14,838 bases of DNA from positions 1 through 14,838 of IMG/VR virus record IMGVR_UViG_3300044614_000224; one strand, given 5' to 3'. The stretch is from a virus (lineage: Duplodnaviria > Heunggongvirae > Uroviricota > Caudoviricetes). The position numbers were made by a program, and so were the translations under genes. The notes below the pieces were generated by a model. It worked only from the letters and a program-made list of their open reading frames with translations, made no database searches and had not been told where the DNA came from. Numbering within the stretch: position 1 is the stretch's first letter; the number at the start of each line of letters is the position of its first letter. Shown here piece after piece: positions 1-14,838 of the stretch.

Positions 1-3000
1 CCTACAAAAGAATAATCTCCTGAAGCAACATTATTTACACCTGTTCCTATAAAAGATACGTTACCATTTGCTGTATTTGCACCACCATTACCTATGAAAG
101 CATAATAAGTACCACTTGCTGTGTTATTAGCTCCTCCAACTACTACATTATAAGAAGTACCGCCAATTGTATTACCATAACCTGCTAAATTACCTGTATA
201 AGAACCTGTTGCGCTATTACTTACTCCACATCTAACAGAAGAACAAGCTCCTGCTCCAAGTATAACCACAGCACTAGAACCAATATCTCTACCAGAGCTA
301 CCTGAGCTACCACTTGTACCTGACGTACCACTGGTGCCAGAAGTTCCACTTGTGCCTGAACTACCACTGGTTCCTGTTGTACCACTAGACCCACTAGAGC
401 CTGTTGTACCAGAGGTTCCTGTTGTACCAGACGTACCACTTGTAGCTGATGTACCACTAGAGCCTGAAGTACCTGTGGTACCTGATGTACCACCTGTACC
501 ATTGGTTCCACTTGTACCACTTGTTCCTGAAGAACCAGCTGTACCTGAGGTGCCATTAGATCCATTAATACCAGATGTTCCTGAGGATCCTGTAGTACCT
601 GAGGTTCCATTTGTGCCATTGATGCCACTGCTGCCAGAAGAACCTGATGTTCCAGTGGTTCCTGAAGTACCACTTGTACCACCTGTTCCATTAGTACCAG
701 ACGTACCACTAGAACCTGCTGAGCCACTAGAGCCAGAAGTTCCTGTTGTGCCACTTGTTCCACTTGTTGCAGAAGTACCACTTGATCCACTAGTACCTGT
801 AGTTCCACTAGAACCTGAAGAGCCTGAGGTACCACTAGTACCACTTGATCCTCCTGTTCCATTAGTTCCACTAGATCCTGAAGTTCCTGAAGACCCACTA
901 GTTCCAGTAGTTCCAGAAGTACCAGTTGTACCACTAGATCCACTTACACCACTGCTTCCACTGGTTCCTGAAGACCCACTAGTGCCAGATGTGCCACTAG
1001 TTCCTCCAACACCTGATGTACCTGAAGATCCAGAGGTACCACTAGGAGGAGTGAATGTGGTTTGTGCGTATGAATAATTACTTGTTCCTTCTGTATAGAA
1101 TGTAATGCTTTGACTTCCTGCACCTGTATGCTCTACATAGATTTGACAGTAAAGTCTATCTGTAGATAACATTGCAGTTTGAGGTAAGAATAGATCTATG
1201 AAAAACTCTTTAATAATACCACTTAACATTGATTCAGTATCAATGTTAGTTGTTCCAAGAAGTGTTGCACTTCCACCTGTAGAGTTACATTTGTAAAACT
1301 CTACATCCACCTTCATATTAACATTAGCGTTGATAGAGAAGTGTGTTACCCAAGCCCAAAGTCCTGAAGGTATACTTGTTATACCTGGAACATTTGAATC
1401 TGTAGCATATGTAGCAAAGAGAGTTCTTGTGCTACCTGCAATACTTGCTGTTACAGTTTGTTCTGCAGTGCCTGTTCCAATTGGAGACCACTGCTTATAT
1501 GTAGGACTGCCAAAAGCAGAACTTGTATTTAATGATTGATTTAGATAGTAGACAAGTCCTCCTGATACACCATTTATACCTGATGTACCTGCTGTTCCAC
1601 TTGTGCCACTTGTTCCAGTGGTACCTGAAGAACCTGAACTTCCACTACTTCCTGAAGATCCAGACGTACCTGTAGTACCACTAGTTCCTGTGGTTCCACT
1701 AGATCCTGATGTCCCACTAGTTCCACTAGTACCTCCAGTACCATTTGTACCAGATGTTCCTGAACTTCCTGAAGATCCACTAGACCCACTTGTACCTGTG
1801 GTGCCTGATGTACCAGCACTACCACTAGTTCCACTTGATCCGCTAGTTCCTGTTGTACCTGAAGAGCCTGAAGAACCTGTTGTTCCTGATGTACCAGAAG
1901 TACCTCCTGTACCATCAGTTGCACTAGTCCCACTAGTTCCACTGGTGCCACTAGTACCAGATGTACCAGATGTTCCACCAGAACCATCAGTACCTGAAGA
2001 TCCACTTGTTCCTGTAGTACCTGACGTACCTGTGGTTCCAGATGATCCACTAGTACCAGTTGTTCCAGAGGTTCCCCCTGTTCCATCTGTACCACTAGTT
2101 CCAGACGTACCTGTTGTACCTGCTGTACCACTTGATCCTGAAGTTCCAGAACTGCCACTAGTACCTGTAGTACCTGAAGTGCCACTGGTACCTGCTGTAC
2201 CTGATGTACCTGTTGTACCAGCAGTTCCTGAACTGCCAGATGTGCCAGAGCTACCTGAAGTTCCTGTAGTTCCGCTTGTACCAGATGTGCCATCTGTACC
2301 TGAGGTACCTGATGTAGCACTTGTACCTGATGAACCTGAGCTTCCAGAAGTGCCTGCTGTACCGCTAGTTCCAGTTGTTCCTGATGTACCGCTAGTACCT
2401 GAAGTACCGCCAGTTCCATCAGTAGCTGAAGTTCCTGAGCTTCCTGAGGTACCAGTTGTTCCACTTGTACCGCTAGTGCCAGATGTTCCGCTTGTACCTG
2501 CAGTACCAGAGGTACCAGCTGTAGCTGTGAAGTTACCTAAGGTACCATCACCTCTTATATATTGAGCTATTGATCCTGTTGCTATAACATTTATAGTTCC
2601 AAAAGAAGTTATAGGAGGTGTTGTGATTTGAAATGCTTGAGGCATAGCAAGTTGTACACTTGTCACAGTGCCTACAGACCAGTTTCTATTTGCTGATAAG
2701 TCATATGTTACACCATTAATACCCAACGTTCTGCTTGTAGGAACTGGTACATACCCTAATGCAGATACAATATCTCCTTGTGTAACAGGAGCAGCAGAGG
2801 TCACAAGACCTTTACCATTTACAGCAAACTTAAGGAATGTGTTACTTCCATATACATTAGAATTAACTGTATCTAATGTTAGTGTAACTGGAGATCCAGT
2901 GAACCCAGATCCACTTACATCGCCTGTAAAACTTAATGATTGAGATGGATAGTTGATTGGTACAGGAGTAACGTTTGTAATCCTACCCTTACCATCCACT

Positions 3001-3500
3001 GTAATACTAGGAACACTTCCTGAATTACCATATGTTCCAGGTGCACCAAATACTGTTGCTAGTGTAGCAGTTACAGAACCTGGTCCGTTAGCTGTTACAT
3101 CACCTGTTAAATTTGAAATATAATTGCCTGCTGGCTGATAGCTAGTTGGATCTAAGCTACCATCACCCTTTACAAAATCTGTTGATAAACCACCTGTGGT
3201 GATGAGAGCAGATGCTTCCAATGTACCAGCAAATGCAAGATTGTATGACCCACCAATTGTAGTGTTTTGAATCAATGCTCCACCCAACATAACTGCACCA
3301 CCAGGAGTCAGTTGTTCAATACCATTCGTAAATATATAACCTAAACCAGCGTCTTGAAACTTTTGATCTATTTTCTGTAGAGCAGTCTGAAGATTGTCAT
3401 TAGTATTAATACCTGTATACACCAAAGTGTTACCCTCGTAGAATACGCAGGTAGCATTTAGTATAATCGGGCACGGTTCAGCTGAACAAGTAATGTCCAT
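1..3500 (-). CDS. Large modular tail fibre / collagen-like structural protein (>1166 aa, 3' end runs off the window)
   Basis: Hand translation from ATG at 3500-3498: MDITCSAEPCPIILNATCVFYEGNTLVYTGINTNDNLQTALQKIDQKF..., then fibre modules, a (GTS)n block, a globular domain, a second (GTS)n block and N-x-A-S-G-x-Y-S-F repeats. Non-repeat parts were read codon by codon and repeat blocks were checked via the antisense ORF translations. No stop found in this frame down to position 3. Confidence 0.85.
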   Translation of the reverse strand, partial: MDITCSAEPCPIILNATCVFYEGNTLVYTGINTNDNLQTALQKIDQKFQDAGLGYIFTNGIEQLTPGGAVMLGGALIQNTTIGGSYNLAFAGTLEASALITTGGLSTDFVKGDGSLDPTSYQPAGNYISNLTGDVTANGPGSVTATLATVFGAPGTYGNSGSVPSITVDGKGRITNVTPVPINYPSQSLSFTGDVSGSGFTGSPVTLTLDTVNSNVYGSNTFLKFAVNGKGLVTSAAPVTQGDIVSALGYVPVPTSRTLGINGVTYDLSANRNWSVGTVTSVQLAMPQAFQITTPPITSFGTINVIATGSIAQYIRGDGTLGNFTATAGTSGTAGTSGTSGTSGTSGTTGTSGSSGTSATDGTGGTSGTSGTSGTTGTSGTAGTSGSSGSSGTSATSGTSGTDGTSGTSGTTGTSGSSGTSGSSGTAGTTGTSGTAGTSGTSGTTGTSGSSGTSGSSGTAGTTGTSGTSGTDGTGGTSGTTGTSGSSGTTGTSGTTGTSGSSGTDGSGGTSGTSGTSGTSGTSGTSATDGTGGTSGTSGTTGSSGSSGTTGTSGSSGTSGSAGTSGTTGTSGSSGSSGSSGTSGTNGTGGTSGTSGTSGSSGTTGTSGTTGTSGSSGSSGSSGSSGTTGTSGTSGTAGTSGINGVSGGLVYYLNQSLNTSSAFGSPTYKQWSPIGTGTAEQTVTASIAGSTRTLFATYATDSNVPGITSIPSGLWAWVTHFSINANVNMKVDVEFYKCNSTGGSATLLGTTNIDTESMLSGIIKEFFIDLFLPQTAMLSTDRLYCQIYVEHTGAGSQSITFYTEGTSNYSYAQTTFTPPSGTSGSSGTSGVGGTSGTSGTSGSSGTSGSSGVSGSSGTTGTSGTTGTSGSSGTSGSSGTNGTGGSSGTSGTSGSSGSSGTTGTSGSSGTSATSGTSGTTGTSGSSGSAGSSGTSGTNGTGGTSGTSGTTGTSGSSGSSGINGTNGTSGTTGSSGTSGINGSNGTSGTAGSSGTSGTSGTNGTGGTSGTTGTSGSSGTSATSGTSGTTGTSGTTGSSGSSGTTGTSGSSGTSGTSGTSGTSGTSGSSGSSGRDIGSSAVVILGAGACSSVRCGVSNSATGSYTGNLAGYGNTIGGTSYNVVVGGANNTASGTYYAFIGNGGANTANGNVSFIGTGVNNVASGDYSFV
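3..218 (-). repeat. ~15-aa beta-roll / YadA-head-like repeats within the fibre gene
   Basis: NSATGSYTGNLAGYG / NTIGGTSYNVVVGGAN / NTASGTYYAFIGNGGA / NTANGNVSFIGTGVN / NVASGDYSFV..., continuing past the window edge. Confidence 0.75.
285..1040 (-). repeat. Gly-X-Y collagen-like block 2 (84 triplets, mostly GTS/GSS/GTT)
   Basis: 9-nt periodicity; Gly in register from 1038-1040 to 291-293; two Gly->Ala substitutions (768-770, 444-446). The antisense shadow reads (PLV/PEV)n. Confidence 0.95.
1041..1562 (-). other. ~174-aa globular, probably beta-sandwich domain between the two collagen-like blocks
   Basis: GGLVYYLNQSLNTSSAFGSPTYKQWSPIG...IPSGLWAWVTHFSINANVNMKVDVEFYKC...LSTDRLYCQIYVEHTGAGSQSITFYTEGTSNYSYAQTTFTPPS; alternating hydrophobic beta-strand pattern, rich in aromatic residues. 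Confidence 0.7.
1563..2516 (-). repeat. Gly-X-Y collagen-like block 1 (106 triplets, mostly GTS/GSS/GTT/GTA)
   Basis: Gly in register from 2514-2516 to 1569-1571; three Gly->Ala substitutions (2424-2426, 2316-2318, 1920-1922); no proline seen. Confidence 0.95.
2784..3119 (-). repeat. Tandem duplicated ~52-aa fibre module
   Basis: ISNLTGDVTANGPGSVTATLATVFGAPGTYGNSGSVPSITVDGKGRITNVTPVPI (3119-2955) versus LSFTGDVSGSGFTGSPVTLTLDTVNSNVYGSNTFLKFAVNGKGLVTSAAPV (2936-2784); shared pattern TGDV..G....T.TL.TV...YG......V.GKG..T...PV. Confidence 0.75.
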
Positions 3501-3524
3501 ATTAATAGATTAGAAGTGTATTGT

Positions 3525-3561
3525 AAATATAACAAAGCGAATGTGCATGGAACACATTCGC
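3525..3561 (-). terminator. Putative intrinsic terminator hairpin (or palindromic operator)
   Basis: Minus strand GCGAATGTG-ttccatg-CACATTCGC, a perfect 9-bp stem (3561-3553 / 3545-3537), followed by TTTGTTATATTT; 73 nt downstream of the 3635 stop codon. Confidence 0.6.
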
Positions 3562-3589
3562 AAAGTTAATGAATATAGTTTATTTTCAA
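3561..3589 (-). promoter_or_regulatory. Putative Bacteroidota housekeeping-sigma promoter for the fibre gene
   Basis: Minus strand TTG (3589-3587)-N18-TAACTTTG (3568-3561). The -7 element matches TAnnTTTG exactly; the spacer is slightly shorter than the usual ~19-21 nt; 60 nt upstream of the ATG. Confidence 0.55.
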
Positions 3590-3634
3590 TGAGTTACGAT
3601 GAAGAATGCCACATAATATAGCAATAATTCACCA

Positions 3635-6600
3635 TTATTGTCTGCGTGATTCAGCACTAACCCTGATACCTAACTCTTTAGCTAACTCTGGGTCAACTAT
3701 TGGTAGGATTTCGCTCTGGAACTGAGATGCAATAGGTATCATATCAAGGAAAGATTTAATAGGATGACCCTTTTTAACAAGATCTTCATCCTCTGTAATA
3801 GTTCCAGCTGACTCTTTAAGTAGGGCTTCTAGGAATCTTTCACCCTTGGTTAATAGACTAAGAGATGGTAGAACACTTCCCTTGGTCATGCCCTCAAAGG
3901 ACATAGGATTATAGTAGAATAGAATTTCATCTGCTATCTTATTACTAGCCTTAGCCCAGAACTTATATCTATTTTGAGCCAATAAGTCTTCCTCATCATC
4001 AGGAACAGCAGCTCTAGCAGCAAGTAATAAACCAAGTACACCAACCACTACACCTAGTTCTTTCATTTGATTTGATAGTTCTTTTCTCATCAAATCATAG
4101 AACTCCTCGTTAGTAATCTCTAATACCTGACCTGTCTTTCTAAGATGCTCTTGTCTTTTATCTTCTAATATCTCATCCATGATAGCAAGCCCTTCAGCTG
4201 TACCAGCCATGATATCTCTCATCTTTGTGATGTTTCTAAAACCTAGGTTAACTAAAGTTTTCAAAAACACCCTTGATCTACCGTATTCCCACTCATCAAG
4301 TTCCATGTTCTTTTGGATATCCAGGGTACGAATACTCACTTGTTTAGGTATCCAGTTCTTGAACATCATAAAAGACTTAAGGATTGTATCTCTTCTATAA
4401 GCAGCCTTGTTATCTTGGTTCATTTGACCATTGATGTTTCTACCGTATTCAATAATCTTTACACGGTATTTAGCAAGCTCTTGATCACTTACACCAGGGA
4501 TAACTAGTTCATCGTTCTCAATCTTAGCCACCTTAGGTAGAGACCTAGTTTCTCTTAACTTTGTCACTCTATCTTCAAATGACTTTTCAAGAGCTCTTCT
4601 TTCATTATCTGACATTGTTAATTTGCCAGACTTATCTTTTGCATATTTAGTCTTTCTATCTTCAGCTCTTAGGTATTGTCTAATATTCACTAGCTTACCA
4701 TTCTCCACCATAGTGTTATCATTGAATGACTTAGCATTAGAATATTGTATTAGTTTTTCAGGTGCTGAGTTTGTAATCATCATTACATCAGTGAAGTTCC
4801 AAGCACTCAAGGTTTTCATAAGTCCTTGTTTTCTAGCAAGTTCCTTTTGTTTCTCAACAGCAACATCTTCATTTAATGGAACAATTAAGTTCATTAACCC
4901 TTTATCTATTGTAGTGAGGTTTGTATTTGATACAATAGATAGGTGGTTCTTTTCAAAGTTCTTGAAGTTGTAAAACCCTCCAGCATTAATGTATGCTTGG
5001 AAATGGTTACCAACATAGTTTGGAATAGCTACTAACGCTTTTAAACCTACAGCTAAACTTTGTGTAAGACCATTGGCATTATTAAATAGCTTCTTAACAG
5101 AAACAGTTTTTCTTTCTGCTTCTTCTTCTCCTTTACTAAGTTTTTCACTTACAGCAGATATACCAATGTTACCAATAGATGTAAGGTCTTCGTTCAATCC
5201 ATATAATGCATCATCTATGATTGTTTGTAATACATCAGCGTTCTTGTTAGAGCTTTCATCTATCTTAGGAGAACCAGCCTCAAATACAATCTTCTGTTCA
5301 GAATCAACAATAATACTTCCTTTAGACTTCTCTACAGAGTGCATGGTTAATAACATGTCCTCCATATCCTTAGCGGATTGGTATTCTAGTAAAGCCTTAA
5401 TCCATAATGGACCAATCTTAGTTAGATCTCTGGATAGTTGAGTTACATCCTTATTTGTCTTAGTAAAGAACTTAGGAACTTCCTTCTTAAGTTTGTTTGT
5501 CTCAGGATCTATTCTTGAATAGCTTTGACCTTCAGTTTCTTTTACAGTGTAAATATCTCTAAAGAAGTCTTTGCCCTGACCAACTATGCTGTTAGTTTGA
5601 GCTAGCTTATCCATCATTGTAGCTTCAACTAATGGGAAGAATGACATTCCCTTCTTAGCCAAATAGCCCATCTGCTTACCCTTCTGATTAAGTTCTGTAA
5701 AGAAGTTCCACATATCTAATGCAGCCTTGTTCTTTGACATCTCCTTATACTCCTTAGATAAGTGCTCATCTTCTTTTAACACCTTACTATAGATGCTAGA
5801 GAAGGCATATCCTTCATAGCCATCAAATGATTTTAAGTTGATGTCTATAGAGTCTCTTAGTTTTTTCTTTCTATATTGTTTAATAGAATCATCCATCTCC
5901 TCATCTGTAGAGAATAATGTACTATCTATTTCTTCTTCACCTTTCTTAATGGCTGCTTTAGCAAGTTCATTAAACTTTGCTACATCCATATTCTCTATTA
6001 AGAAATCTTTATTCTTACTAGACTTAGCTTTAGATAGTTCATTCCAGAACTCTTTATCGATCTTCTTGATTAAAGAAAGCGTATCACCATCTACGTAACC
6101 AATTAGATCAAATGCAGACTTACCTGTTCTAGAAGCTTCTTTCTCTAGCTCTAATAACAATGGTTCAAATGTCTTAACCATCTTAGATGTCTGGATAGCT
6201 ACACCACTCTTAGCATTTAGAATAGCATTTGAAGCTAGTCTAATAATCCTAGGAGAAAGCTTACTTCCTTCTAAGAATGTCTTTGCTAAAAATCCAATCT
6301 CTAATTCAGGATTTAATATTGTTTTTGCCTTATCTTTTGTAACAGCTCCTTCTTTCAATGCATATTGTACAACAAAGTTTTTTTGTAACTCACTGATTTT
6401 CAACAACATTGCATCTGTAGACTTAGATACATCTTTCAATGAACTAAGTATCTTCTGCTCCTCAATAGTCATATCTTCTTTAGAGACTTGAGATAGATAT
6501 ACACTATCTACTTTAGAAAACTTCTCAGCACTCTTCTGAAGCTGAATAAGTTGTCCTAGTCTCTCAGCTATTTCATTTTGCTCTAGCTTTGAATAGTCAA

Positions 6601-7786
6601 TAGCTTCAAATGAATCTAATGTTTTCTTTGCATCCACTAGGAAGTTCTTACCAACAATAGACAATGGAGCAAAGTCCTGCTTCATGTGTAAGTAACGAAT
6701 AGCTTTAGCTAACTGATTGAGTTTTAACTTCTTAGCTAAGTATTCCTCTTCAGTGCGTGGTTTTTTGTATAGCTTCTCCCATTGAGTTCTAAGAGATTTA
6801 ACTAACTCATCCACCTTCTTATTACCTGTTGTTTCTGTATCTAATGCTACAGGGAGTAAATAGAGTTTGGTTTCTTTTAGGTTATCCACCTTACCAATCT
6901 CTAATGATTTGAGAATCAATGGACTCTTCTTATCTCCTCTCACCTTATTCTCATAGTTAGCATAGAATGGAATCATTCTTGCTTTTCTTAATTGCTCAGG
7001 CTTAAGACCATAGCTGTAAAGCATCTTTGAGTATTCACCCATCTGAGCTTTCCATTCTGTTTGCTTATAGAAAGGAATATCTTCGTTAGTAGATTTGTTG
7101 AAGTTGGTAAACTTCCAGTCAAATATATCTACTCTCATATCCCTAGTACCATCAGCTTTTCTAATAGGCTCAACAATAATCAAGTCCATTGTAGAAGATA
7201 TCATACCCTTTACAGATGTATTGGTACCTTTTCTTTCTACAAGGAATCTTGTTCCTGGAGGATATGATCTAACTAGTTCCTCTAGATAAGATCTTATTCC
7301 TGTTTGTATAGTGCTGTTTAATCTAGATGCTGTAGCAGTCTTTGTGAATACATCTTTAGCATAACCATCTTCATCAAGTAGGTCTGTCTTAAGTGTCACC
7401 TCAGCAAAAGCATGCCCATCAGATCCCCAGTCTTTCTTCTGTGTATCTTGACCTTGTTCAAACTCTGTACGCTCAGTGGTCTTTTGTTTAACCTTTTCAG
7501 TTACACTGCTTGCTACTCTCTTATTATCAAAACCGTAATGTCTTTTATCAGTTTCAGTTGCAGGAATAAGAACAGTTCTATTATCCATATCAATAACTTT
7601 ATTTACAAAGTTATCAACAGTTTCATTAGGAACACGTCCTCCCTTCAAAGGATCAGTTGCTCCTGATAGTACATCAGCAGGAACTTCTCCTTCATATAAA
7701 TCCCATAGATAGTATGCTATATTTTCTCCTCTAGAGGCTACTAATTGTTTCCAGGAATCAAGATTTTCGTTTGGACAGCTTGCCAT
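3635..7786 (-). CDS. Large virion cargo/ejection-type protein with N-terminal PD-(D/E)XK nuclease-like domain (1383 aa)
   Basis: Full ORF, ATG to TAA. Nuclease-like motifs in aa ~80-280; long charged, apparently alpha-helical body; one hydrophobic segment LGVVVGVLGLLLAARAAV (4057-4004); immediately downstream of the virion-type RNAP. The ejection role is inferred from context. Confidence 0.7.
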   Translation of the reverse strand: MASCPNENLDSWKQLVASRGENIAYYLWDLYEGEVPADVLSGATDPLKGGRVPNETVDNFVNKVIDMDNRTVLIPATETDKRHYGFDNKRVASSVTEKVKQKTTERTEFEQGQDTQKKDWGSDGHAFAEVTLKTDLLDEDGYAKDVFTKTATASRLNSTIQTGIRSYLEELVRSYPPGTRFLVERKGTNTSVKGMISSTMDLIIVEPIRKADGTRDMRVDIFDWKFTNFNKSTNEDIPFYKQTEWKAQMGEYSKMLYSYGLKPEQLRKARMIPFYANYENKVRGDKKSPLILKSLEIGKVDNLKETKLYLLPVALDTETTGNKKVDELVKSLRTQWEKLYKKPRTEEEYLAKKLKLNQLAKAIRYLHMKQDFAPLSIVGKNFLVDAKKTLDSFEAIDYSKLEQNEIAERLGQLIQLQKSAEKFSKVDSVYLSQVSKEDMTIEEQKILSSLKDVSKSTDAMLLKISELQKNFVVQYALKEGAVTKDKAKTILNPELEIGFLAKTFLEGSKLSPRIIRLASNAILNAKSGVAIQTSKMVKTFEPLLLELEKEASRTGKSAFDLIGYVDGDTLSLIKKIDKEFWNELSKAKSSKNKDFLIENMDVAKFNELAKAAIKKGEEEIDSTLFSTDEEMDDSIKQYRKKKLRDSIDINLKSFDGYEGYAFSSIYSKVLKEDEHLSKEYKEMSKNKAALDMWNFFTELNQKGKQMGYLAKKGMSFFPLVEATMMDKLAQTNSIVGQGKDFFRDIYTVKETEGQSYSRIDPETNKLKKEVPKFFTKTNKDVTQLSRDLTKIGPLWIKALLEYQSAKDMEDMLLTMHSVEKSKGSIIVDSEQKIVFEAGSPKIDESSNKNADVLQTIIDDALYGLNEDLTSIGNIGISAVSEKLSKGEEEAERKTVSVKKLFNNANGLTQSLAVGLKALVAIPNYVGNHFQAYINAGGFYNFKNFEKNHLSIVSNTNLTTIDKGLMNLIVPLNEDVAVEKQKELARKQGLMKTLSAWNFTDVMMITNSAPEKLIQYSNAKSFNDNTMVENGKLVNIRQYLRAEDRKTKYAKDKSGKLTMSDNERRALEKSFEDRVTKLRETRSLPKVAKIENDELVIPGVSDQELAKYRVKIIEYGRNINGQMNQDNKAAYRRDTILKSFMMFKNWIPKQVSIRTLDIQKNMELDEWEYGRSRVFLKTLVNLGFRNITKMRDIMAGTAEGLAIMDEILEDKRQEHLRKTGQVLEITNEEFYDLMRKELSNQMKELGVVVGVLGLLLAARAAVPDDEEDLLAQNRYKFWAKASNKIADEILFYYNPMSFEGMTKGSVLPSLSLLTKGERFLEALLKESAGTITEDEDLVKKGHPIKSFLDMIPIASQFQSEILPIVDPELAKELGIRVSAESRRQ
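6947..7549 (-). other. PD-(D/E)XK (RecB/Cas4-like) nuclease domain
   Basis: HY...SVT (aa84-96), WGSDGHAFAE (aa120-129), FLVE (E184), STMDLIIV (D201, nt 7186-7184), VDIFDWK (D223-W-K225, nt 7120-7112), QMGEYSKML (Q248/Y252). Order and spacing fit the RecB-family fold. Confidence 0.75.
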
Positions 7787-7787
7787 G

Positions 7788-10700
7788 TTAACAGATTTCT
7801 TTTAATACTTTACCAATTTCGATAGGGCTATATCCCATATCTTTTAATAGTTTACCGTTTATATCTATGATGTTGTATCTTTTACCATCTCTCAATTCTA
7901 CAGATACTTCCCCTTCTTTAGAGAACAAGTTTGTTTGAGCAGTGTCTACAAGCTTCTGGTTATTGTCTAACAATAGTTGAGCATATTGCGGTATTGTTAA
8001 ACCATTTGCTTCATCATTGTTAGAAATATTTTCTACAAAATCAATTGCAAATATAGGATTATTTTGTAAGAACGTAGCTTCTTCTACAGTAATTTTATCA
8101 GTAACTTCTCCTACATAATAATCTACATCAGGTCCATATTTTTCATTTTCAAGATCTTCAATACTAACAATCTCTCCTTCAGAACTAAGTCTTGCTGCCT
8201 GTTGCAATAAGTTACTATCCATACCTTGTATTGTTTTAGGATAGTCTATTCTAATTCTTTTATCTGCATCTTTAAACACAAGCTCTCCTGAAGGTAAGCT
8301 AATTGCTTTCTTTTCACCAGGTTCTGCAACTTGTTGATTCTCAGTAGGTTGACTAGATACAGGCTTAACAGCATATACAAATCTAGCTTGTCTACCATTG
8401 ATGAAGTTAGTTGAATATTTGTTGTATAGTTTAAATTGACGCCAGTCTTGAAATCCTTCCTTCTTAGCAAACTCATCTAGACGATAAGTTGTTTTATCAG
8501 TTAAAGACATCACCACATCAAGTACCACTTGGAACTGACCAAGTTTAGTTAGCTCAACTCTTGAACCATCAGGAAGAGCGTATACACCATCTCTGTAGTT
8601 CTCAGTTCTATTGGTGATAGTCTTAGTACCAGCTTTGATTCTAAGTACATTGTCACTCTGCATAGCAAGGTTACCTATGATTTCATTCTCCTTAGGAACA
8701 GCATTAACCACTACGTTTGAAGTTTGAATCTCAGGAGACACAGCTACTTCTTCTGGTAATGGAGAAACCATTTCCTCTTTAGTAACACCAAAGTATTGTA
8801 GAATAACGTCATCTGGTATAGACTCATCAGCTTCTTCAAAGCCATTCTTTATAACAGACTTTCTATTATCTGGATAGAACTCATTAGCATTACTTCCATC
8901 ACCCCAAGCATTGATAAGTTTGTATAGGTATGTTTCAGATAAACCATCAGCACTAGGAATGATTCCTACATATTTGAATAAACCTTTTTTCTTATATGAG
9001 TAGTCACCATCCTTTCTCATCTTTCTCTTTTCAGAAGGAAGGAATTCTTTTTCCCATGTATGCACAATTACATCATAGTTTGCTTCTCTGTTACCTGAAG
9101 GAATTTTTAACAATAAAGGAAGGTCTCCTTTTCTCATTGCCTCATAGATACCATTTCCAAACTTCATTTCCTCATTGTAATAAGTTTGTTGTGTATAGAA
9201 GTCAAATCTAGATGTAGCCTTATGATGAGGAACTATATCATCAAAGTTCCAATACTTTCTTTCAAACACATTCAAGTTAGCAAAGTCTTCTAGACTTGCA
9301 TATGAAGGTAAGTCAGCTATCACATCATTGTATTCTTTCACAATATCTAGATAAGGAAGCTGAGATGTAAATGATATGTTAGATTCATTTAAACCAGACT
9401 GTAGTATAGATAAGGTTACTAACTTATCGTAAATATCACCATTACCTTCAGTTTTTAAGAAGTCTCTTAGCTCTGCAAAAGAAGCAGTGATCTGATTTTG
9501 ATCATACACCTTGTTGCTCTTGTTCTTAATCTTTATGTTATTCACCTCACCTGGCTTACCAAATAAAGGTTGTAATATTCTGACAATATGATTGTTATGT
9601 AAAGGATGATCTTGGTTTGCAGGATCTAATATAGGCTTAATAAACTCACTAATTTGTTTAGCTGTATTAGTATCTTTGTTCAACAAAACTTCTGTAATCT
9701 TCTCGTTCAACCCATTCTGTGTTTGAACAGCCCAATCAAACAATGCAGCTACAGCTCTTTGAGAAGTCTTAACAAAGTCTCTATCATTCATACCTACGTA
9801 TGGAGTGAGTACCTTTTGAATAACCTCTCTTACATTACCTTGGTCTGCTCTAATGATTGTAGCTAAAGCATCTCTCATTTCAATAATAGTGTCTTTCAAC
9901 TGACCAATGAAAGCGTTGTCTAACATATCATCTACAGAGCTGAAGATAGTTTTTCTAGCTTTTTCTAACTGCATCAACTTCTTAAATACTAAGAATGGAT
10001 CGTTGAAAGAAGCTGTATCAAAGTTAGTTCCTTGGGTAACATTGAATGACTGTTCAGCCATCTTAGCATACTTCAAGAACTCTTTTAATATAAATGTTTG
10101 TTCAGCTTTATCAAGTTGAGTTAGTTCTCTCTTACCAACAGTGCTTTCTAATTTCTCAAGAGAAGGCATTTCTTTGATGGTAAGCTTGTTGTTTTTATAC
10201 TTCCTTATTACTCTGTTGTATGTCTTATTATTGAATAACCAAGTTTGACCATCCCTTTCTAATGTACGTAAGTAGTCACGAATGATTGGTTGGTTCATGA
10301 AATAAGCTACAGTGTTAATAGGTACCCCCACCTTAGTTAAGAACATCCATGTAGAAGCTACGTTTGGTGTAGCACCTAATTCCATAATCCATGGACCCTT
10401 AGAGATATCCACATATCCATCAATGAACTGACCTAAGATGTCAGAGATGTATTCACCTTGAGGGAATTTTTCACTTCTCTCAGCATTTCTAGTCATTGAT
10501 ATTGTAGGGAATACACCTTTTCCAGGTATCTCAATCTTGTTATATTCAGGGAATTTAATCTGACCATCACCTAACCATTTCAAATCTCCGCCATCTAATA
10601 GCCCAGATCTTCCGTTGAAATCAATATAGATAGGTTGTCTTTGATTTAAAGAATGGTTTGTTTGGTTTACAGCTGCAATACCAATTGCATATTTACCAGA

Positions 10701-13700
10701 TACAAACGCATGTCTAAGTCTAGACATAAAGTTTCTATCTAACATGTTACCTGGATCCTTATAATCAAATGTACCAAAGCCTAACTTAGTAGTGATGTCT
10801 TTAGACAAATCTTTCAATTGATCTGCAGAGTTAGGTTTAACTAGATTCTTAAAGTTTAAAGGATGTGAGATGAGTCTTTGTAAAGATTCAACATATGCAT
10901 TCTCTAAGTTCGATTTACCCCTACCATTAACAGATATAAGTCTAGGTAGTCCCTTAGAACTATCATCTACGTTCTTAAGGTAGATTGACAATTTATCTAT
11001 ATCAAAGTCAGATCCAACCTTCTTCACTAAGGCAGAAGGAATCACCACAGAATCTCCAAACTCCTTAGGAAGGAACTTAGCTATTCTGAATACATCAATA
11101 GAGTTTTGTTTTTGTGTAGGAATACGGAAGGCAACACCTTCTAATATTCTTTGTCCTTCTGGAGTGCTATTTAATTTCTTAAGAAGGTCTTCATCAGATA
11201 GGTCACTTTCAAACCATCTGCCCACCATGATTTCACACACACGCTGTCCATCTTTATCTTCGTAGAACTTCAACACATCAGATGTGTATGCTCCTTTTTC
11301 AGACTGGATTCTATTAGATTCTAATAGTGTAGAAGGGATTTGTACCTTCATACCACCATTAACCTTAGGGCTAATGATTTCTCTATCAGCAATTGAATAT
11401 AGAATGTTTCTAATTTGTTTGTATGCAGGAGTTGCTTCAGCCATTACAGTACCAGTAGAGTATCCTCTAAGAGCCTCACTGATGTTATCACTGATTTCTC
11501 TCTTGGTAAACTCTTTACGTAATGTTTCAACAACCTTTTCAAAGTTGTCAATCTTATAACCACCATCAACCTTACTGATACCAAATGTATCAAGTAGAGA
11601 ATCCATACCAACCTCCATCATATCTTCTACGATCTTTTGGTTGTTCTTGATCTCTTTGTATAAAGGAGACTTTGCTTCTTTCTCTGTTTCAGAAAGACCA
11701 AACCATTCCATGTAACGATCTGTAAATGAACCAGTTGGATTGTAGTCAATAGGTATACCAGCATCCATGAAGTCTAATGTAACAAGTTTAGTCATTTGAG
11801 AACCTCTTGTTACAAGACCATCATCTTTAGAAGGAACCTCAGATTGAATACTAATGATACTGAATGGTACATTAATAATTCCTTGCTTTAAGTCTTTATT
11901 GTTTGTCTGTGCTTCTGTTTGGAAAGGTTCATTGTTAAACTCGCCATTCTTATATAATTTATGCACAGCTTCAGCCCCTACCTTTCTACCACTGTTGTAT
12001 ACAGCATAGTCTACATCCTCTTCTTGCATCTTGTTATACAACTTGACAGCATTAGATTCAGGATTCATTTCATGTAACACTCTGAAACTCAATGGGAAAA
12101 GGGCAAACTTATCTAATACAATATCATTAAAGTTTCTACCATTAGCTTTGTTTCCAGATACAATAGGTTTGATTGGAGTGTAAGCACGCTTGATTGCAGG
12201 GTTACCTCTCTTTAAAGCGTTTCTGTCAACTCCTGATAACTTAACACCCTTAACTTTTTTCTCGTAAGCAATGTCATACTTATATTGTCTTTCTTTATCA
12301 CCATCCCATTCACCAGCACGTATCAAATAATTACGATAGGCTTTCATGGTAATCATACCACCACCATCTGTTTCTTCCCAAGTACCATAATCAGGTAGGT
12401 CAGTAGTTGCTATAACATCATCTAATGTAACTGATCTAAAGAAGTCTTTATTAAAGTCTGTATAACCAATAGTACCTTCAGCTACACCCTTATTCCAAAT
12501 TCTATTTGCAGAAGAGTTGAATGAATCAGATCCACTTACAATAGCTTGTCTAGGAGAACTAAAGCTTTTAATACGCTTAAGTTCATCTGAGTATTGATAT
12601 GGATCAGAATATAATAATTTATGAAGCTCAATATTGTTAATCATGTAGTTAGCAGACAAAGCTGTTAACTCTCTGTTTAAGTCTTCTGCTGATATTAAGT
12701 CTTTAGCAAAAGATAAACCTTCAGCCATGAAACCATTACCCACTTCATCAAGCACTCCATAGTTTACTAGAGAGGTCATTAATGCATCTTTTTGCTTAAG
12801 TAGGAATGCACTAACAGCATCATCAATAACTTGTTTATTATCTGCATAGATTTCTTCTGCTGTAAATACTTCCCCTTCCTCAGCTATAATATCATCATGT
12901 AACTTCTTACCAAGGATAGCTTTGAAGAAACGTAAATCTAGAGCATCTCTATCTTTTGCTACATTACGATTTTCTCTAGCTAGGTTTATCTCATCTATGA
13001 AATATCCTCTAAATATATCATGTACACGATTGAGGTTTAATAGGATGTCATCAGTTGATACTGCATTACCCATGTTCATCATCCACTCAATAGTTGCATC
13101 TCCAGGGATTAGGTTTAGATAGTAACCAGCAGAGTTAAGGTTGATTTCCTGTAATAGTCTTTCTTTAGAAGTTAACTTAGAAGACTGCTTTTGTTTACCA
13201 CTCTCTTCGTTAACTGTACCATCAGCATATGCTGTTTGCATTAGGTCCTCTGTATCATCAGCACGTTTGCCTGTAGCCTTATCAAACATTCTTGATAGAA
13301 TGATTGAGTTCTTAGCAAATGAGTCTGTAAGTAGATATTCATATTGTGTACCTACTAACTCATTGATATTCTTAAGCTTTGATAATGTATCATATAAATC
13401 ACTAGCTGCGTTTGTACCAATGAATGTCTGTGTAAGTTCACCATTAACATTATAGAATGTGCTGCTGAACTCTGGGTTATCCATGATAGCCTTAATCTCA
13501 GATAGTTGGTATAAACGTTTGTTGATATCAAGTGTTTTACCACTTACAGTGATGAGACGCTTGCCATCAGCAATACTTGTTCTAATACCATTAACTGCTT
13601 CTGAGAATGTAGTTTTCTCACGCATCTTAACAAGTCTGTCGTAATCAAACTCAATTCCAAACTCTTTTAAGAATTCCACTTGAGCCAATAAGCTTCCAAG

Positions 13701-14838
13701 CTTTGCTTCTTTTATAGAATCTTCATTACCTATGTATGAGTTACTAGTAGCTGAATAGGTGATATATTTGTTTCCGTTGTTAACAGCATCGATAATGTTA
13801 TTAACAAATCCTTCTTCCACTTGTCTAGCAGCAGTGGTGAAGTTAGAATCACCCACTTGTATATCTCCATTCTCTAGAACATACACATTCTTAACTGTAG
13901 GAGATTGTTTCTTGAACGTTCTCCAGAATGCAGCTAATAATTGAATATCGTTCTGATTGTTTAACTGGCTGATTTCCTTTAACTTAGTTAAACGATTGTA
14001 AAGTTTTGTATACTTAGAATCGTTAGAAGACATATCCTTTACAGTGGCAATCATTGAATCAAGGGTCACTGAACCACTTACGTTGTTCATGATGCCTATG
14101 TAAGCCTCACTCATTGGGATTAATGTGTAACCACCAATAGATGATAATCTTTCTGAACCATTGTTGTATACAGCAGGAAGGCTAGCTAACAATAACTTGA
14201 TAGCAGAGTTAGCCTTTCTCATATGGTCTATCTTAGAAGCATCACCATAAGGATCATCTTTACTTCTTTCATCTCCTAATACCATCTCATCATTCTCATC
14301 AAACTCAATTGAATAAGACTTAAGATATTCTTGGTGTCTTTCTACAATATATTCCCAGTTGTTTAGGATGTTATTATTTAATGTATTTTGTGCATCAATA
14401 CCTTGAGCCTTCACCTCTTCAGAAACATCTGTCATTTTCTCTAGCTCAACAATATTATCAGCAATCAAATCACTCATCTCATCTTTGAGTCTTGAGTAGA
14501 GTTGAGTCTTATTTAGACTAGGAATATTAAACAAACCTTCATTTGTTTCAAACAAATCCTTCACAACTGTATAAGTCATGTGTTGAATGATGTCATGTAA
14601 CTGAGCACCTGTGAATCCAGTGATTCTGTATTCAGAAGCCTCAGTACCTGCAGCATCTTCAATATCTATGATTCCTTGTTCAGCGTAAGATAGTGCTCCT
14701 TGGTATGGAGAATATTGTGCATAGTATCCAGAACCAATGTTCTCAAATAACTTATCTGTATTCTCTTGAGCTTTATCTCCTGTAAAGAATCCTTTGATGA
14801 AGTCTACGATTTGTGAGAATATTCTGGAAATCAATGAC
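7788..14838 (-). CDS. crAss-like virion DNA-dependent RNA polymerase, single-chain two-barrel (phi14:2 gp66-like), >2348 aa, 5' truncated
   Basis: Catalytic GSDFDIDKL (DFDID at 11009-10995), upstream FRIPTQKQNS (11129-11100), ETDGGGMIT (12374-12348), RGSQMTKL (11807-11784), GQFIDGYVDISKGP (~10431-10393). The track's start at 14834 is a TTG with an open frame upstream, so the true start lies outside the window. Confidence 0.88.
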   Translation of the reverse strand, partial: SLISRIFSQIVDFIKGFFTGDKAQENTDKLFENIGSGYYAQYSPYQGALSYAEQGIIDIEDAAGTEASEYRITGFTGAQLHDIIQHMTYTVVKDLFETNEGLFNIPSLNKTQLYSRLKDEMSDLIADNIVELEKMTDVSEEVKAQGIDAQNTLNNNILNNWEYIVERHQEYLKSYSIEFDENDEMVLGDERSKDDPYGDASKIDHMRKANSAIKLLLASLPAVYNNGSERLSSIGGYTLIPMSEAYIGIMNNVSGSVTLDSMIATVKDMSSNDSKYTKLYNRLTKLKEISQLNNQNDIQLLAAFWRTFKKQSPTVKNVYVLENGDIQVGDSNFTTAARQVEEGFVNNIIDAVNNGNKYITYSATSNSYIGNEDSIKEAKLGSLLAQVEFLKEFGIEFDYDRLVKMREKTTFSEAVNGIRTSIADGKRLITVSGKTLDINKRLYQLSEIKAIMDNPEFSSTFYNVNGELTQTFIGTNAASDLYDTLSKLKNINELVGTQYEYLLTDSFAKNSIILSRMFDKATGKRADDTEDLMQTAYADGTVNEESGKQKQSSKLTSKERLLQEINLNSAGYYLNLIPGDATIEWMMNMGNAVSTDDILLNLNRVHDIFRGYFIDEINLARENRNVAKDRDALDLRFFKAILGKKLHDDIIAEEGEVFTAEEIYADNKQVIDDAVSAFLLKQKDALMTSLVNYGVLDEVGNGFMAEGLSFAKDLISAEDLNRELTALSANYMINNIELHKLLYSDPYQYSDELKRIKSFSSPRQAIVSGSDSFNSSANRIWNKGVAEGTIGYTDFNKDFFRSVTLDDVIATTDLPDYGTWEETDGGGMITMKAYRNYLIRAGEWDGDKERQYKYDIAYEKKVKGVKLSGVDRNALKRGNPAIKRAYTPIKPIVSGNKANGRNFNDIVLDKFALFPLSFRVLHEMNPESNAVKLYNKMQEEDVDYAVYNSGRKVGAEAVHKLYKNGEFNNEPFQTEAQTNNKDLKQGIINVPFSIISIQSEVPSKDDGLVTRGSQMTKLVTLDFMDAGIPIDYNPTGSFTDRYMEWFGLSETEKEAKSPLYKEIKNNQKIVEDMMEVGMDSLLDTFGISKVDGGYKIDNFEKVVETLRKEFTKREISDNISEALRGYSTGTVMAEATPAYKQIRNILYSIADREIISPKVNGGMKVQIPSTLLESNRIQSEKGAYTSDVLKFYEDKDGQRVCEIMVGRWFESDLSDEDLLKKLNSTPEGQRILEGVAFRIPTQKQNSIDVFRIAKFLPKEFGDSVVIPSALVKKVGSDFDIDKLSIYLKNVDDSSKGLPRLISVNGRGKSNLENAYVESLQRLISHPLNFKNLVKPNSADQLKDLSKDITTKLGFGTFDYKDPGNMLDRNFMSRLRHAFVSGKYAIGIAAVNQTNHSLNQRQPIYIDFNGRSGLLDGGDLKWLGDGQIKFPEYNKIEIPGKGVFPTISMTRNAERSEKFPQGEYISDILGQFIDGYVDISKGPWIMELGATPNVASTWMFLTKVGVPINTVAYFMNQPIIRDYLRTLERDGQTWLFNNKTYNRVIRKYKNNKLTIKEMPSLEKLESTVGKRELTQLDKAEQTFILKEFLKYAKMAEQSFNVTQGTNFDTASFNDPFLVFKKLMQLEKARKTIFSSVDDMLDNAFIGQLKDTIIEMRDALATIIRADQGNVREVIQKVLTPYVGMNDRDFVKTSQRAVAALFDWAVQTQNGLNEKITEVLLNKDTNTAKQISEFIKPILDPANQDHPLHNNHIVRILQPLFGKPGEVNNIKIKNKSNKVYDQNQITASFAELRDFLKTEGNGDIYDKLVTLSILQSGLNESNISFTSQLPYLDIVKEYNDVIADLPSYASLEDFANLNVFERKYWNFDDIVPHHKATSRFDFYTQQTYYNEEMKFGNGIYEAMRKGDLPLLLKIPSGNREANYDVIVHTWEKEFLPSEKRKMRKDGDYSYKKKGLFKYVGIIPSADGLSETYLYKLINAWGDGSNANEFYPDNRKSVIKNGFEEADESIPDDVILQYFGVTKEEMVSPLPEEVAVSPEIQTSNVVVNAVPKENEIIGNLAMQSDNVLRIKAGTKTITNRTENYRDGVYALPDGSRVELTKLGQFQVVLDVVMSLTDKTTYRLDEFAKKEGFQDWRQFKLYNKYSTNFINGRQARFVYAVKPVSSQPTENQQVAEPGEKKAISLPSGELVFKDADKRIRIDYPKTIQGMDSNLLQQAARLSSEGEIVSIEDLENEKYGPDVDYYVGEVTDKITVEEATFLQNNPIFAIDFVENISNNDEANGLTIPQYAQLLLDNNQKLVDTAQTNLFSKEGEVSVELRDGKRYNIIDINGKLLKDMGYSPIEIGKVLKEIC
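8358..8681 (-). other. ASCH/PUA-like domain in the RNAP C-terminal extension
   Basis: LAMQSDNVLRIKAGTKTITNR (GxKTxTxR at 8630-8607), then VELTKLGQF, DEFAKKEGF (EGF 8459-8451) and the terminal strand FVYAVKPV; flanked by Pro/Glu-rich linkers. Confidence 0.7.

Follow-up and report, generated by a model that had tools for sequence, protein, structure and literature searches.

The stretch of DNA analysed here, referred to as the window, comprises positions 1–14,838 of the Caudoviricetes record IMGVR_UViG_3300044614_000224 and forms the beginning of a 114,588-base pair genome with direct terminal repeats. All features described below lie on its minus strand. The region 7788–14838 is occupied by a single open frame of 2,349 codons plus stop, which is the C-terminal part of a giant open reading frame (ORF) of the virion RNA polymerase type, and close to the C terminus of this ORF lies a predicted ASCH-fold domain of 108 amino acids resembling Escherichia coli YqfB (8358–8681). 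The TAA stop is located at 7788–7790 and the frame remains open up to the window end, with the ATG lying beyond the window near genome position 20261, giving a whole ORF of ~4,157 codons. The initial annotation of this DNA had placed an ASCH domain in the tail of a virion RNA polymerase, and this picture holds, but the window covers only the C-terminal 2,349 of the ~4,157 residues. The giant ORF matches g066 of Cellulophaga phage phi14:2 ("Catalytic RNA polymerase subunit") with an E value of 4e-11 in a tblastn search of 50,697 phage records, and all matches of the 2,349-residue fragment in this search come from crAss-like phages. Pairwise BLASTP of the giant ORF with the phi14:2 protein gp66 gave an E value of 1e-18 and 21% identity over ~830 residues, with KKVGSDFDIDKLSI of the giant ORF paired with TKTGSDFDIDKMYV of gp66, including the motif GSDFDIDK. 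The catalytic metal-binding motif DFDID (10995–11009) is thereby aligned to DFDID 1361–1365 of gp66, where every aspartate is essential for transcription (bioRxiv 10.1101/2020.03.07.982082). The fragment matched nothing in Pfam or PHROGs, and phmmer against PDB sequences missed gp66, though tblastn and BLASTP detect it. Judged by its sequence, the giant ORF encodes a distant homologue of gp66, the crAss-type virion RNA polymerase, in agreement with the polymerase identity originally proposed.

Translation of 8681–8358 yields 108 amino acids with no stops, in frame with the giant ORF. The domain contains the ASCH octapeptide GTKTITNR of the GK[T]R type (8607–8630, within IKAGTKTITNR), whose Lys, Thr, and Arg correspond to Lys-21, Thr-24, and Arg-26 of YqfB, and an AKKEGF motif (8451–8468), whose Glu-Gly pair is nearly invariant in the family. 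It is flanked by linker 1 (MVSPLPEEVAVSPEIQTSNVVVNAVPKENE, 8682–8771), which is rich in Pro, Glu, Val, and Ser and contains VSPLPEEVAVSPEIQTS, and by linker 2 (SSQPTENQQVAEPGEKK in translation, 8307–8357). The motifs and both linkers quoted in the initial annotation are all present, and the limits it gave, 8358–8681, agree nearly perfectly with the folded unit: between its first and its last strand, the AlphaFold model (residues 4–111 of the translation of window positions 8343–8690) spans 8681–8358. The genome contains the domain only once and gives no Pfam ASCH match.

The AlphaFold model of the domain, calculated with a 16-sequence alignment, has a predicted local distance difference test (pLDDT) value of 93.3 and a predicted template-modelling score of 0.85, and the five models agree within 0.5 pLDDT units. 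An exhaustive VIA-align fold search of 48,161 PDB representative chains returned YqfB (9kyf_A) as the top match, with a Z-score of 10.0 and a root mean square deviation of 2.3 Å for 91 of 102 residues. Ranks 1–12 are occupied by ASCH proteins throughout, with Z-scores from 10.0 to 4.2, YqfB being followed by PH0355, L. crispatus ASCH (3s9x), EF3133, ZmASCH, PF0470, mouse CXorf40A, 3iuw, af2351, ASC1, 1wk2, and human TRIP4. Below rank 12 the Z-score drops to 3.4 and other PUA-like folds are found (ATP sulfurylase N-domain, TruB PUA, EVE/THYN1, and YTH). The top rows from Foldseek are also ASCH proteins (probability 1.00, E value 6.5e-3). As modelled, the domain is therefore of the ASCH/PUA-like fold, as initially suggested, and represents a divergent subfamily whose membership is indicated by fold and motif; that a true ASCH-fold cassette is present on a crAss-type RNA polymerase is, in our judgement, highly probable. 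Sequence searches of PDB with the single domain, a 16-sequence profile, and a trimmed profile gave chance matches only, with no ASCH entry, and neither PHROGs nor PADLOC returned a significant family for the domain. The ASCH model is also resembled by the BFVD entry A0A7M1RU68_5 (probability 0.99, template-modelling score 0.54), a piece of a giant protein from a published gut crAss-like phage (uncultured phage cr272_1) named "NTF2 domain-containing protein", and gut crAss-like phages may hold a still more divergent ASCH-fold unit.

The comparison with YqfB extends to the residues required for catalysis. YqfB hydrolyses N4-acylcytosines and N4-acetylcytidine (ac4C); its K21A, T24A, and R26A variants are inactive, the E74A variant is reduced ~1000-fold, and the H70A and Y89A exchanges have mild effects (PMC6972931). 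In hhalign, phage G21-T-K23-T-I-T26-N-R28 (numbered on the translation of 8343–8690) falls on G19-R-K21-T-I-T24-I-R26 of YqfB, with IKAGTKTITNRTE of the domain paired with YqfB ILAGRKTITIRDE and the octapeptide aligned to ILAGRKTITIRD (GRKTITIR). A 15-sequence profile set against the single YqfB sequence aligned the octapeptide alone, with a probability of 23%; a 67-sequence phage-family profile set against the YqfB family, a shallow profile whose listed homologues are all near-identical enterobacterial sequences, gave a probability of 89.6% and an E value of 1.9e-6 over 72 columns. Conservation was counted in 67 instances of the domain with a mutual identity of only ~30–55%. Within the octapeptide G21 is retained in 64/67, K23 in 59/67, T26 in 61/67, and R28 in 63/67, and elsewhere E78 (65/67), G79 (67/67), Y37 (63/67), and R103 (58/67) are similarly conserved, with a small subgroup having Ala at position 23 and lysines at adjacent positions. 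E78, the glutamate of AKKEGF, is a candidate counterpart of YqfB Glu-74, judged by its position after the first helix. The retention of the Lys, Thr, Arg, and Glu-Gly positions across a divergent family argues for a retained enzymatic site and points to a domain that has kept a putative catalytic function, rather than to a binding scaffold.

YqfB (PDB ID 9KYF/9KYH, 1TE7) and the phage domain are alike in their length of ~105 amino acids, their octapeptide type, the register of Lys, Thr, and Arg, and the presence of a conserved Glu after the first helix. They differ in that the phage domain is only ~18% identical, contains an extra β-hairpin (model residues ~57–70), and is fused inside a 4,157-residue protein, whereas YqfB stands alone. 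A YqfB orthologue acquired from the host was also considered as the origin of the domain, and is ruled out by this identity together with the failure of the equivalog model described below. In a 2026 preprint, 19 diverse ASCH proteins were reported to remove ac4C from tRNA; the GK[T/S]R type is listed there for bacteria, archaea, and some eukaryotes, with viruses under the GKER type, in contrast to the GKTR type of the phage domain.

To place the domain among related polymerases, the final conserved part of the polymerase body (8772–9740) served as anchor for fetching the 29 nearest relatives from IMG/VR, whose contigs are 32–84% identical over this segment. At the junction following the body, the closest relative (L023) and L036 carry the ASCH unit, L030 (4982–5680, E value 3e-10) and L048 (5099–5728, E value 1e-8) carry a cpYpsA-type SLOG domain, L046 carries a NADAR domain (4934–5680, E value 3e-9), and L033, L040, L045, and L049 have inserts of 100–240 amino acids of no assigned family. 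In ~19 relatives the protein ends 13–79 amino acids after the body, most relatives having 13–60, and the tail of L050 runs past the fetched stretch, for at least 1,333 amino acids of no assigned family. The insert of L049 (5003–5716) contains the motif NGIFVFGSNDRGIHGLGAAKTAMDEFGA and has no Pfam match at E ≤ 0.01; it may represent a further module for nucleotide processing.

The giant ORF closes with a C-terminal end-piece of 48 amino acids (7791–7934, terminal Cys codon 7791–7793). These last 48 residues (…VELRDGKRYNIIDINGKLLKDMGYSPIEIGKVLKEIC) can be aligned both to the short tails of relatives lacking an insert and to the C terminus of the tail that bears NADAR, following the pattern …L[KR]DGK.Y…L..MGY…E.G.…C, in which L, G-K, L, G, E, G, and the terminal Cys are invariant. 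The end-piece (~45 amino acids) looks like the true functional C terminus of this polymerase clade, and, since it is common to ASCH-bearing, NADAR-bearing, and insert-less tails, the ASCH unit is an insertion and one of several alternative occupants of the site. Between linker 2 and the end-piece lies a stretch of 124 amino acids (7935–8306), for which phmmer finds only the stretch itself and the two nearest relatives, L023 and P0002, and which has no Pfam match and no usable ESM Atlas match; AlphaFold confidence for the C-terminal 184 amino acids is low (pLDDT 38). Located between the body and the end-piece, this stretch is by the tail alignments part of the same insertion as the ASCH unit, and it may be a second cassette. 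Two ideas about the history of the insertion found no support. Recent acquisition was sought in the GC content, and the difference between the insert (0.37–0.39) and its surroundings (0.32–0.35) is too slight to speak for it; linker-guided exchange was sought as a repeated linker motif at the cassette borders, and the flanks are of low complexity and not conserved in relatives. The ~4,157-residue protein has only two cysteines, one at stop-to-stop position 3018 and one as the very last residue. Exactly one tail cysteine, always within the last 1–6 residues, is found in 28 of the 29 nearest relatives, the only cysteines of gp66 are C3 and C2179 of 2180, and most of the distant giant proteins described below likewise end in or beside a cysteine. 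The terminal cysteine may serve to anchor the protein in the virion, either covalently or through a metal.

The domain is far from a chance occurrence. Among 1.84 billion cluster representatives, a full scan with HMMER detected 76 relatives of it with E ≤ 1e-3, of which 46 reach E ≤ 1e-10. In most of the 76 the domain lies near the C terminus of a protein of 3,000–6,000 residues, and most of these giants carry D[FY]D[IVG]D, many aligning with the protein described here over thousands of residues. The same tails of distant giants combine ASCH with NADAR (P0004, P0007, and P0077) or with SLOG-like modules (P0003 and P0069). The ASCH unit is 45–50% identical to those of P0009 and P0011, whose polymerase cores are only 22–23% identical; this higher identity fits strong constraint, lineage-to-lineage exchange, or both. 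A few giants (P0061, P0063, P0008, and P0065) place an ASCH-like unit upstream of DFDxD or in the N-terminal third of the protein, and P0061 (4,712 amino acids) has two tandem ASCH-like copies at residues ~1599–1830. Such placements suggest that the ASCH-like unit is mobile within giant proteins. A tblastn search of the 50,697 GenBank phage records with the domain gave nothing at E ≤ 1e-3, indicating a subfamily known from metagenomic contigs only. Apart from a wastewater virome comparison in which the term occurs once, we found no paper joining ASCH with crAss-like phages or Crassvirales, nor any on the fusion of ASCH with a crAss-type RNA polymerase, of which the initial annotation likewise knew no described case.

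The time and place at which such a domain could act depend on whether the giant protein is delivered to the host. In phi14:2, gp66 is a component of the virion that enters the host along with the DNA, and the protein transcribes single-stranded or denatured DNA (bioRxiv 10.1101/2020.03.07.982082). The homologous body with the DFDID motif and the position in a virion gene block are shared between gp66 (PDB ID 6VR4) and the giant ORF. Downstream of the giant ORF there is an ORF of 1,383 amino acids followed by a collagen-like tail fibre, an arrangement that matches a virion gene block, and the N-terminal ~1,800 residues of the giant protein, encoded beyond the window, are similar to structural proteins from crAss-like phages of Cellulophaga and Bacteroides. 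Homology to gp66 (~21% identity) and the tail-fibre-adjacent position make it probable that the giant protein is likewise packaged in the virion and delivered to the host. Differences from gp66 are also clear, as gp66 has 2,180 amino acids and is without ASCH or any other tail cassette, whereas the protein described here has ~4,157 amino acids, with a 260-residue insertion before the end-piece and the ~1,800 N-terminal residues similar to other virion structural proteins. A single base separates the polymerase stop from the start of the 1,383-amino acid ORF (TGT TAA C ATG, window 7780–7800). BLASTP detected no similarity between the product of this ORF and phi14:2 gp65.

We assign a probability of roughly 0.55 to the reading that the domain is a divergent YqfB-type (GK-T-R) ASCH hydrolase cassette that is delivered with the virion and is catalytic on the tail of the polymerase. 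According to this proposal, it would be an optional cassette inserted between the crAss-type polymerase body and the short conserved end-piece, and with the whole giant protein packaged and entering together with the DNA, the ASCH unit would arrive preformed within the first minutes of infection. By comparison with YqfB and other ASCH proteins, which act on ac4C and tRNA, the reaction would most likely be hydrolysis of an N4-acyl (acetyl) group from cytosine in nucleic acid, with a mark on host RNA or an acyl mark on the RNA or DNA of the phage as possible targets. Its role would parallel the base repair or de-modification expected for the alternative NADAR cassette. The function suggested in the initial annotation, in which the domain is delivered with the polymerase and processes RNA or modified nucleotides or acts as an anti-host effector, is plausible and agrees with the conserved catalytic residues and the cassette behaviour.

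Several results weigh against this proposal. The Pfam ASCH model (PF04266) gives 12.9–13.1 bits (E value 0.16–0.19) and does not reach its gathering cut-off of 21.2, and 2 of 16 relatives reach E ≤ 1 with it; the outcome that would have refuted the initial annotation, a lack of any ASCH/PUA profile or structural match, is nevertheless not what was found, since the structural match is clear even though the Pfam one alone stays below cut-off, at 13 versus 21.2 bits. The NCBIfam equivalog model for YqfB (NF003443) has no match at E ≤ 10 for the domain or for three relatives, with YqfB itself as positive control scoring 177.5 bits. The low-confidence tail of the hhalign alignment put the EGF motif elsewhere than at YqfB Glu-74, and the substrate-framing residues His-70 and Tyr-89 of YqfB have no evident counterpart, His-70 landing on Phe/Tyr. 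Bacteroidota is the host phylum of cultured crAss-like phages. Bacteroides thetaiotaomicron, the single control from this phylum, shows neither TmcA GNAT (PF13718) nor TmcAL (PF05636) but does carry a Pfam ASCH gene, and if the host is similar, ac4C may be absent from its tRNA, which speaks against the domain being an eraser of host tRNA marks, although one control genome is thin evidence. Delivery, for its part, is argued from homology to gp66 at ~21% identity, and the giant protein would also be present late in the producing cell, where action of the domain is possible. A more specific form of the proposal, in which an injected cytosine N4-deacylase fused to the polymerase erases an acyl mark and ASCH, NADAR, and SLOG are interchangeable "base-cleaning" cassettes of counter-defence, must be regarded as speculative and is considerably less probable than the general one. 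Its target could be either a host RNA modification that normal translation requires or a so far undescribed host defence that acylates the DNA or RNA of incoming phages.

Instead of hydrolysing a substrate, the domain might be a non-catalytic nucleic acid binder or a "reader" of modified bases, serving either as a tether between the polymerase and RNA or single-stranded DNA or as a sensor of a modified base. The PUA-like superfamily, of which ASCH is a member, comprises binders of RNA and of modified bases, as illustrated by YTH, EVE, and the ASCH domain of TRIP4, and YTH, EVE/THYN1, and PUA are present among the lower structural rows; a helper in nucleic acid handling is also conceivable for a polymerase that, like gp66, uses single-stranded or denatured DNA, and the lack of evident His-70- and Tyr-89-type substrate residues would fit a binding role. 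However, the nearest fold match is the enzyme YqfB, and the Lys, Thr, and Arg whose mutation abolishes YqfB activity are, together with Glu-Gly, the most conserved positions of the family. Most close relatives are moreover without such a module, so the polymerase does not need it for its function, and we consider a reader possible but unlikely. Somewhat less probable again is an active ASCH hydrolase that works late in the producing cell, for example in ac4C salvage from degraded host RNA, or that is removed by proteolysis before packaging. YqfB and EOLA1 have been described as salvage enzymes for free ac4C (YqfB: PMC6972931), the giant protein is made late, and the flexible flanking linkers could be cleaved. 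Against this, a salvage enzyme on a low-copy virion protein would be an odd route for bulk metabolism, the end-piece is kept whatever the insert, which suggests that the tail stays within one functional polypeptide, and the co-occurring NADAR and SLOG are conflict-type domains. Chance resemblance, in which an unrelated spacer within the virion protein shares no more than a common small β-barrel arrangement with ASCH, would accommodate the Pfam E value of 0.16, the empty PDB profile searches, the Foldseek E value of only 6.5e-3, and the fact that Z-scores of 7–8 can come from common arrangements, but it is very improbable given a Z-score of 10.0 above this noise band, 12 top chains of the 48,161 that are all ASCH before the gap to 3.4, an octapeptide that is present and aligned by hhalign, and a model that spans the whole domain.

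The proposal of a virion-delivered hydrolase cassette has a precedent in the polyvalent proteins of phages and conjugative elements (Iyer et al. 2017, PMC5512222), which include virion RNA polymerases of the N4 type with fused MPTase, ART, lysozyme, or PBECR domains. They follow the same logic, namely that of a giant, virion-carried, early-acting protein that gathers variable enzymatic domains joined by linkers, and the putative enzymatic domains of the tails described here do differ between close relatives, as is characteristic of polyvalent proteins. That study covers single-subunit virion RNA polymerases of the N4 type, in contrast to the two-barrel crAss type of the giant ORF, and the terms ASCH, PUA, NADAR, and SLOG each occur 0 times in its main text. 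The present findings would carry the concept of polyvalent proteins over from virion polymerases of the N4 type to those of the crAss type. They also define a predicted new and divergent ASCH subfamily of 76 cluster representatives, below the Pfam cut-off, as a candidate addition to annotation resources, and the isolated 108-residue domain is small, confidently predicted, and easy to assay. ASCH proteins have only lately been shown to be ac4C amidohydrolases and erasers of tRNA ac4C, and their biological roles are largely open; the occurrence of an ASCH gene in B. thetaiotaomicron without TmcA or TmcAL raises the question of what the targets of ASCH proteins are in Bacteroidota. An ASCH unit that is swapped with NADAR and SLOG at the tail of a virion polymerase would represent a natural setting in which de-acylation of nucleic acids matters during infection, and if the counter-defence form of the proposal were true, a class of base-acylating defence systems would still be to be found.

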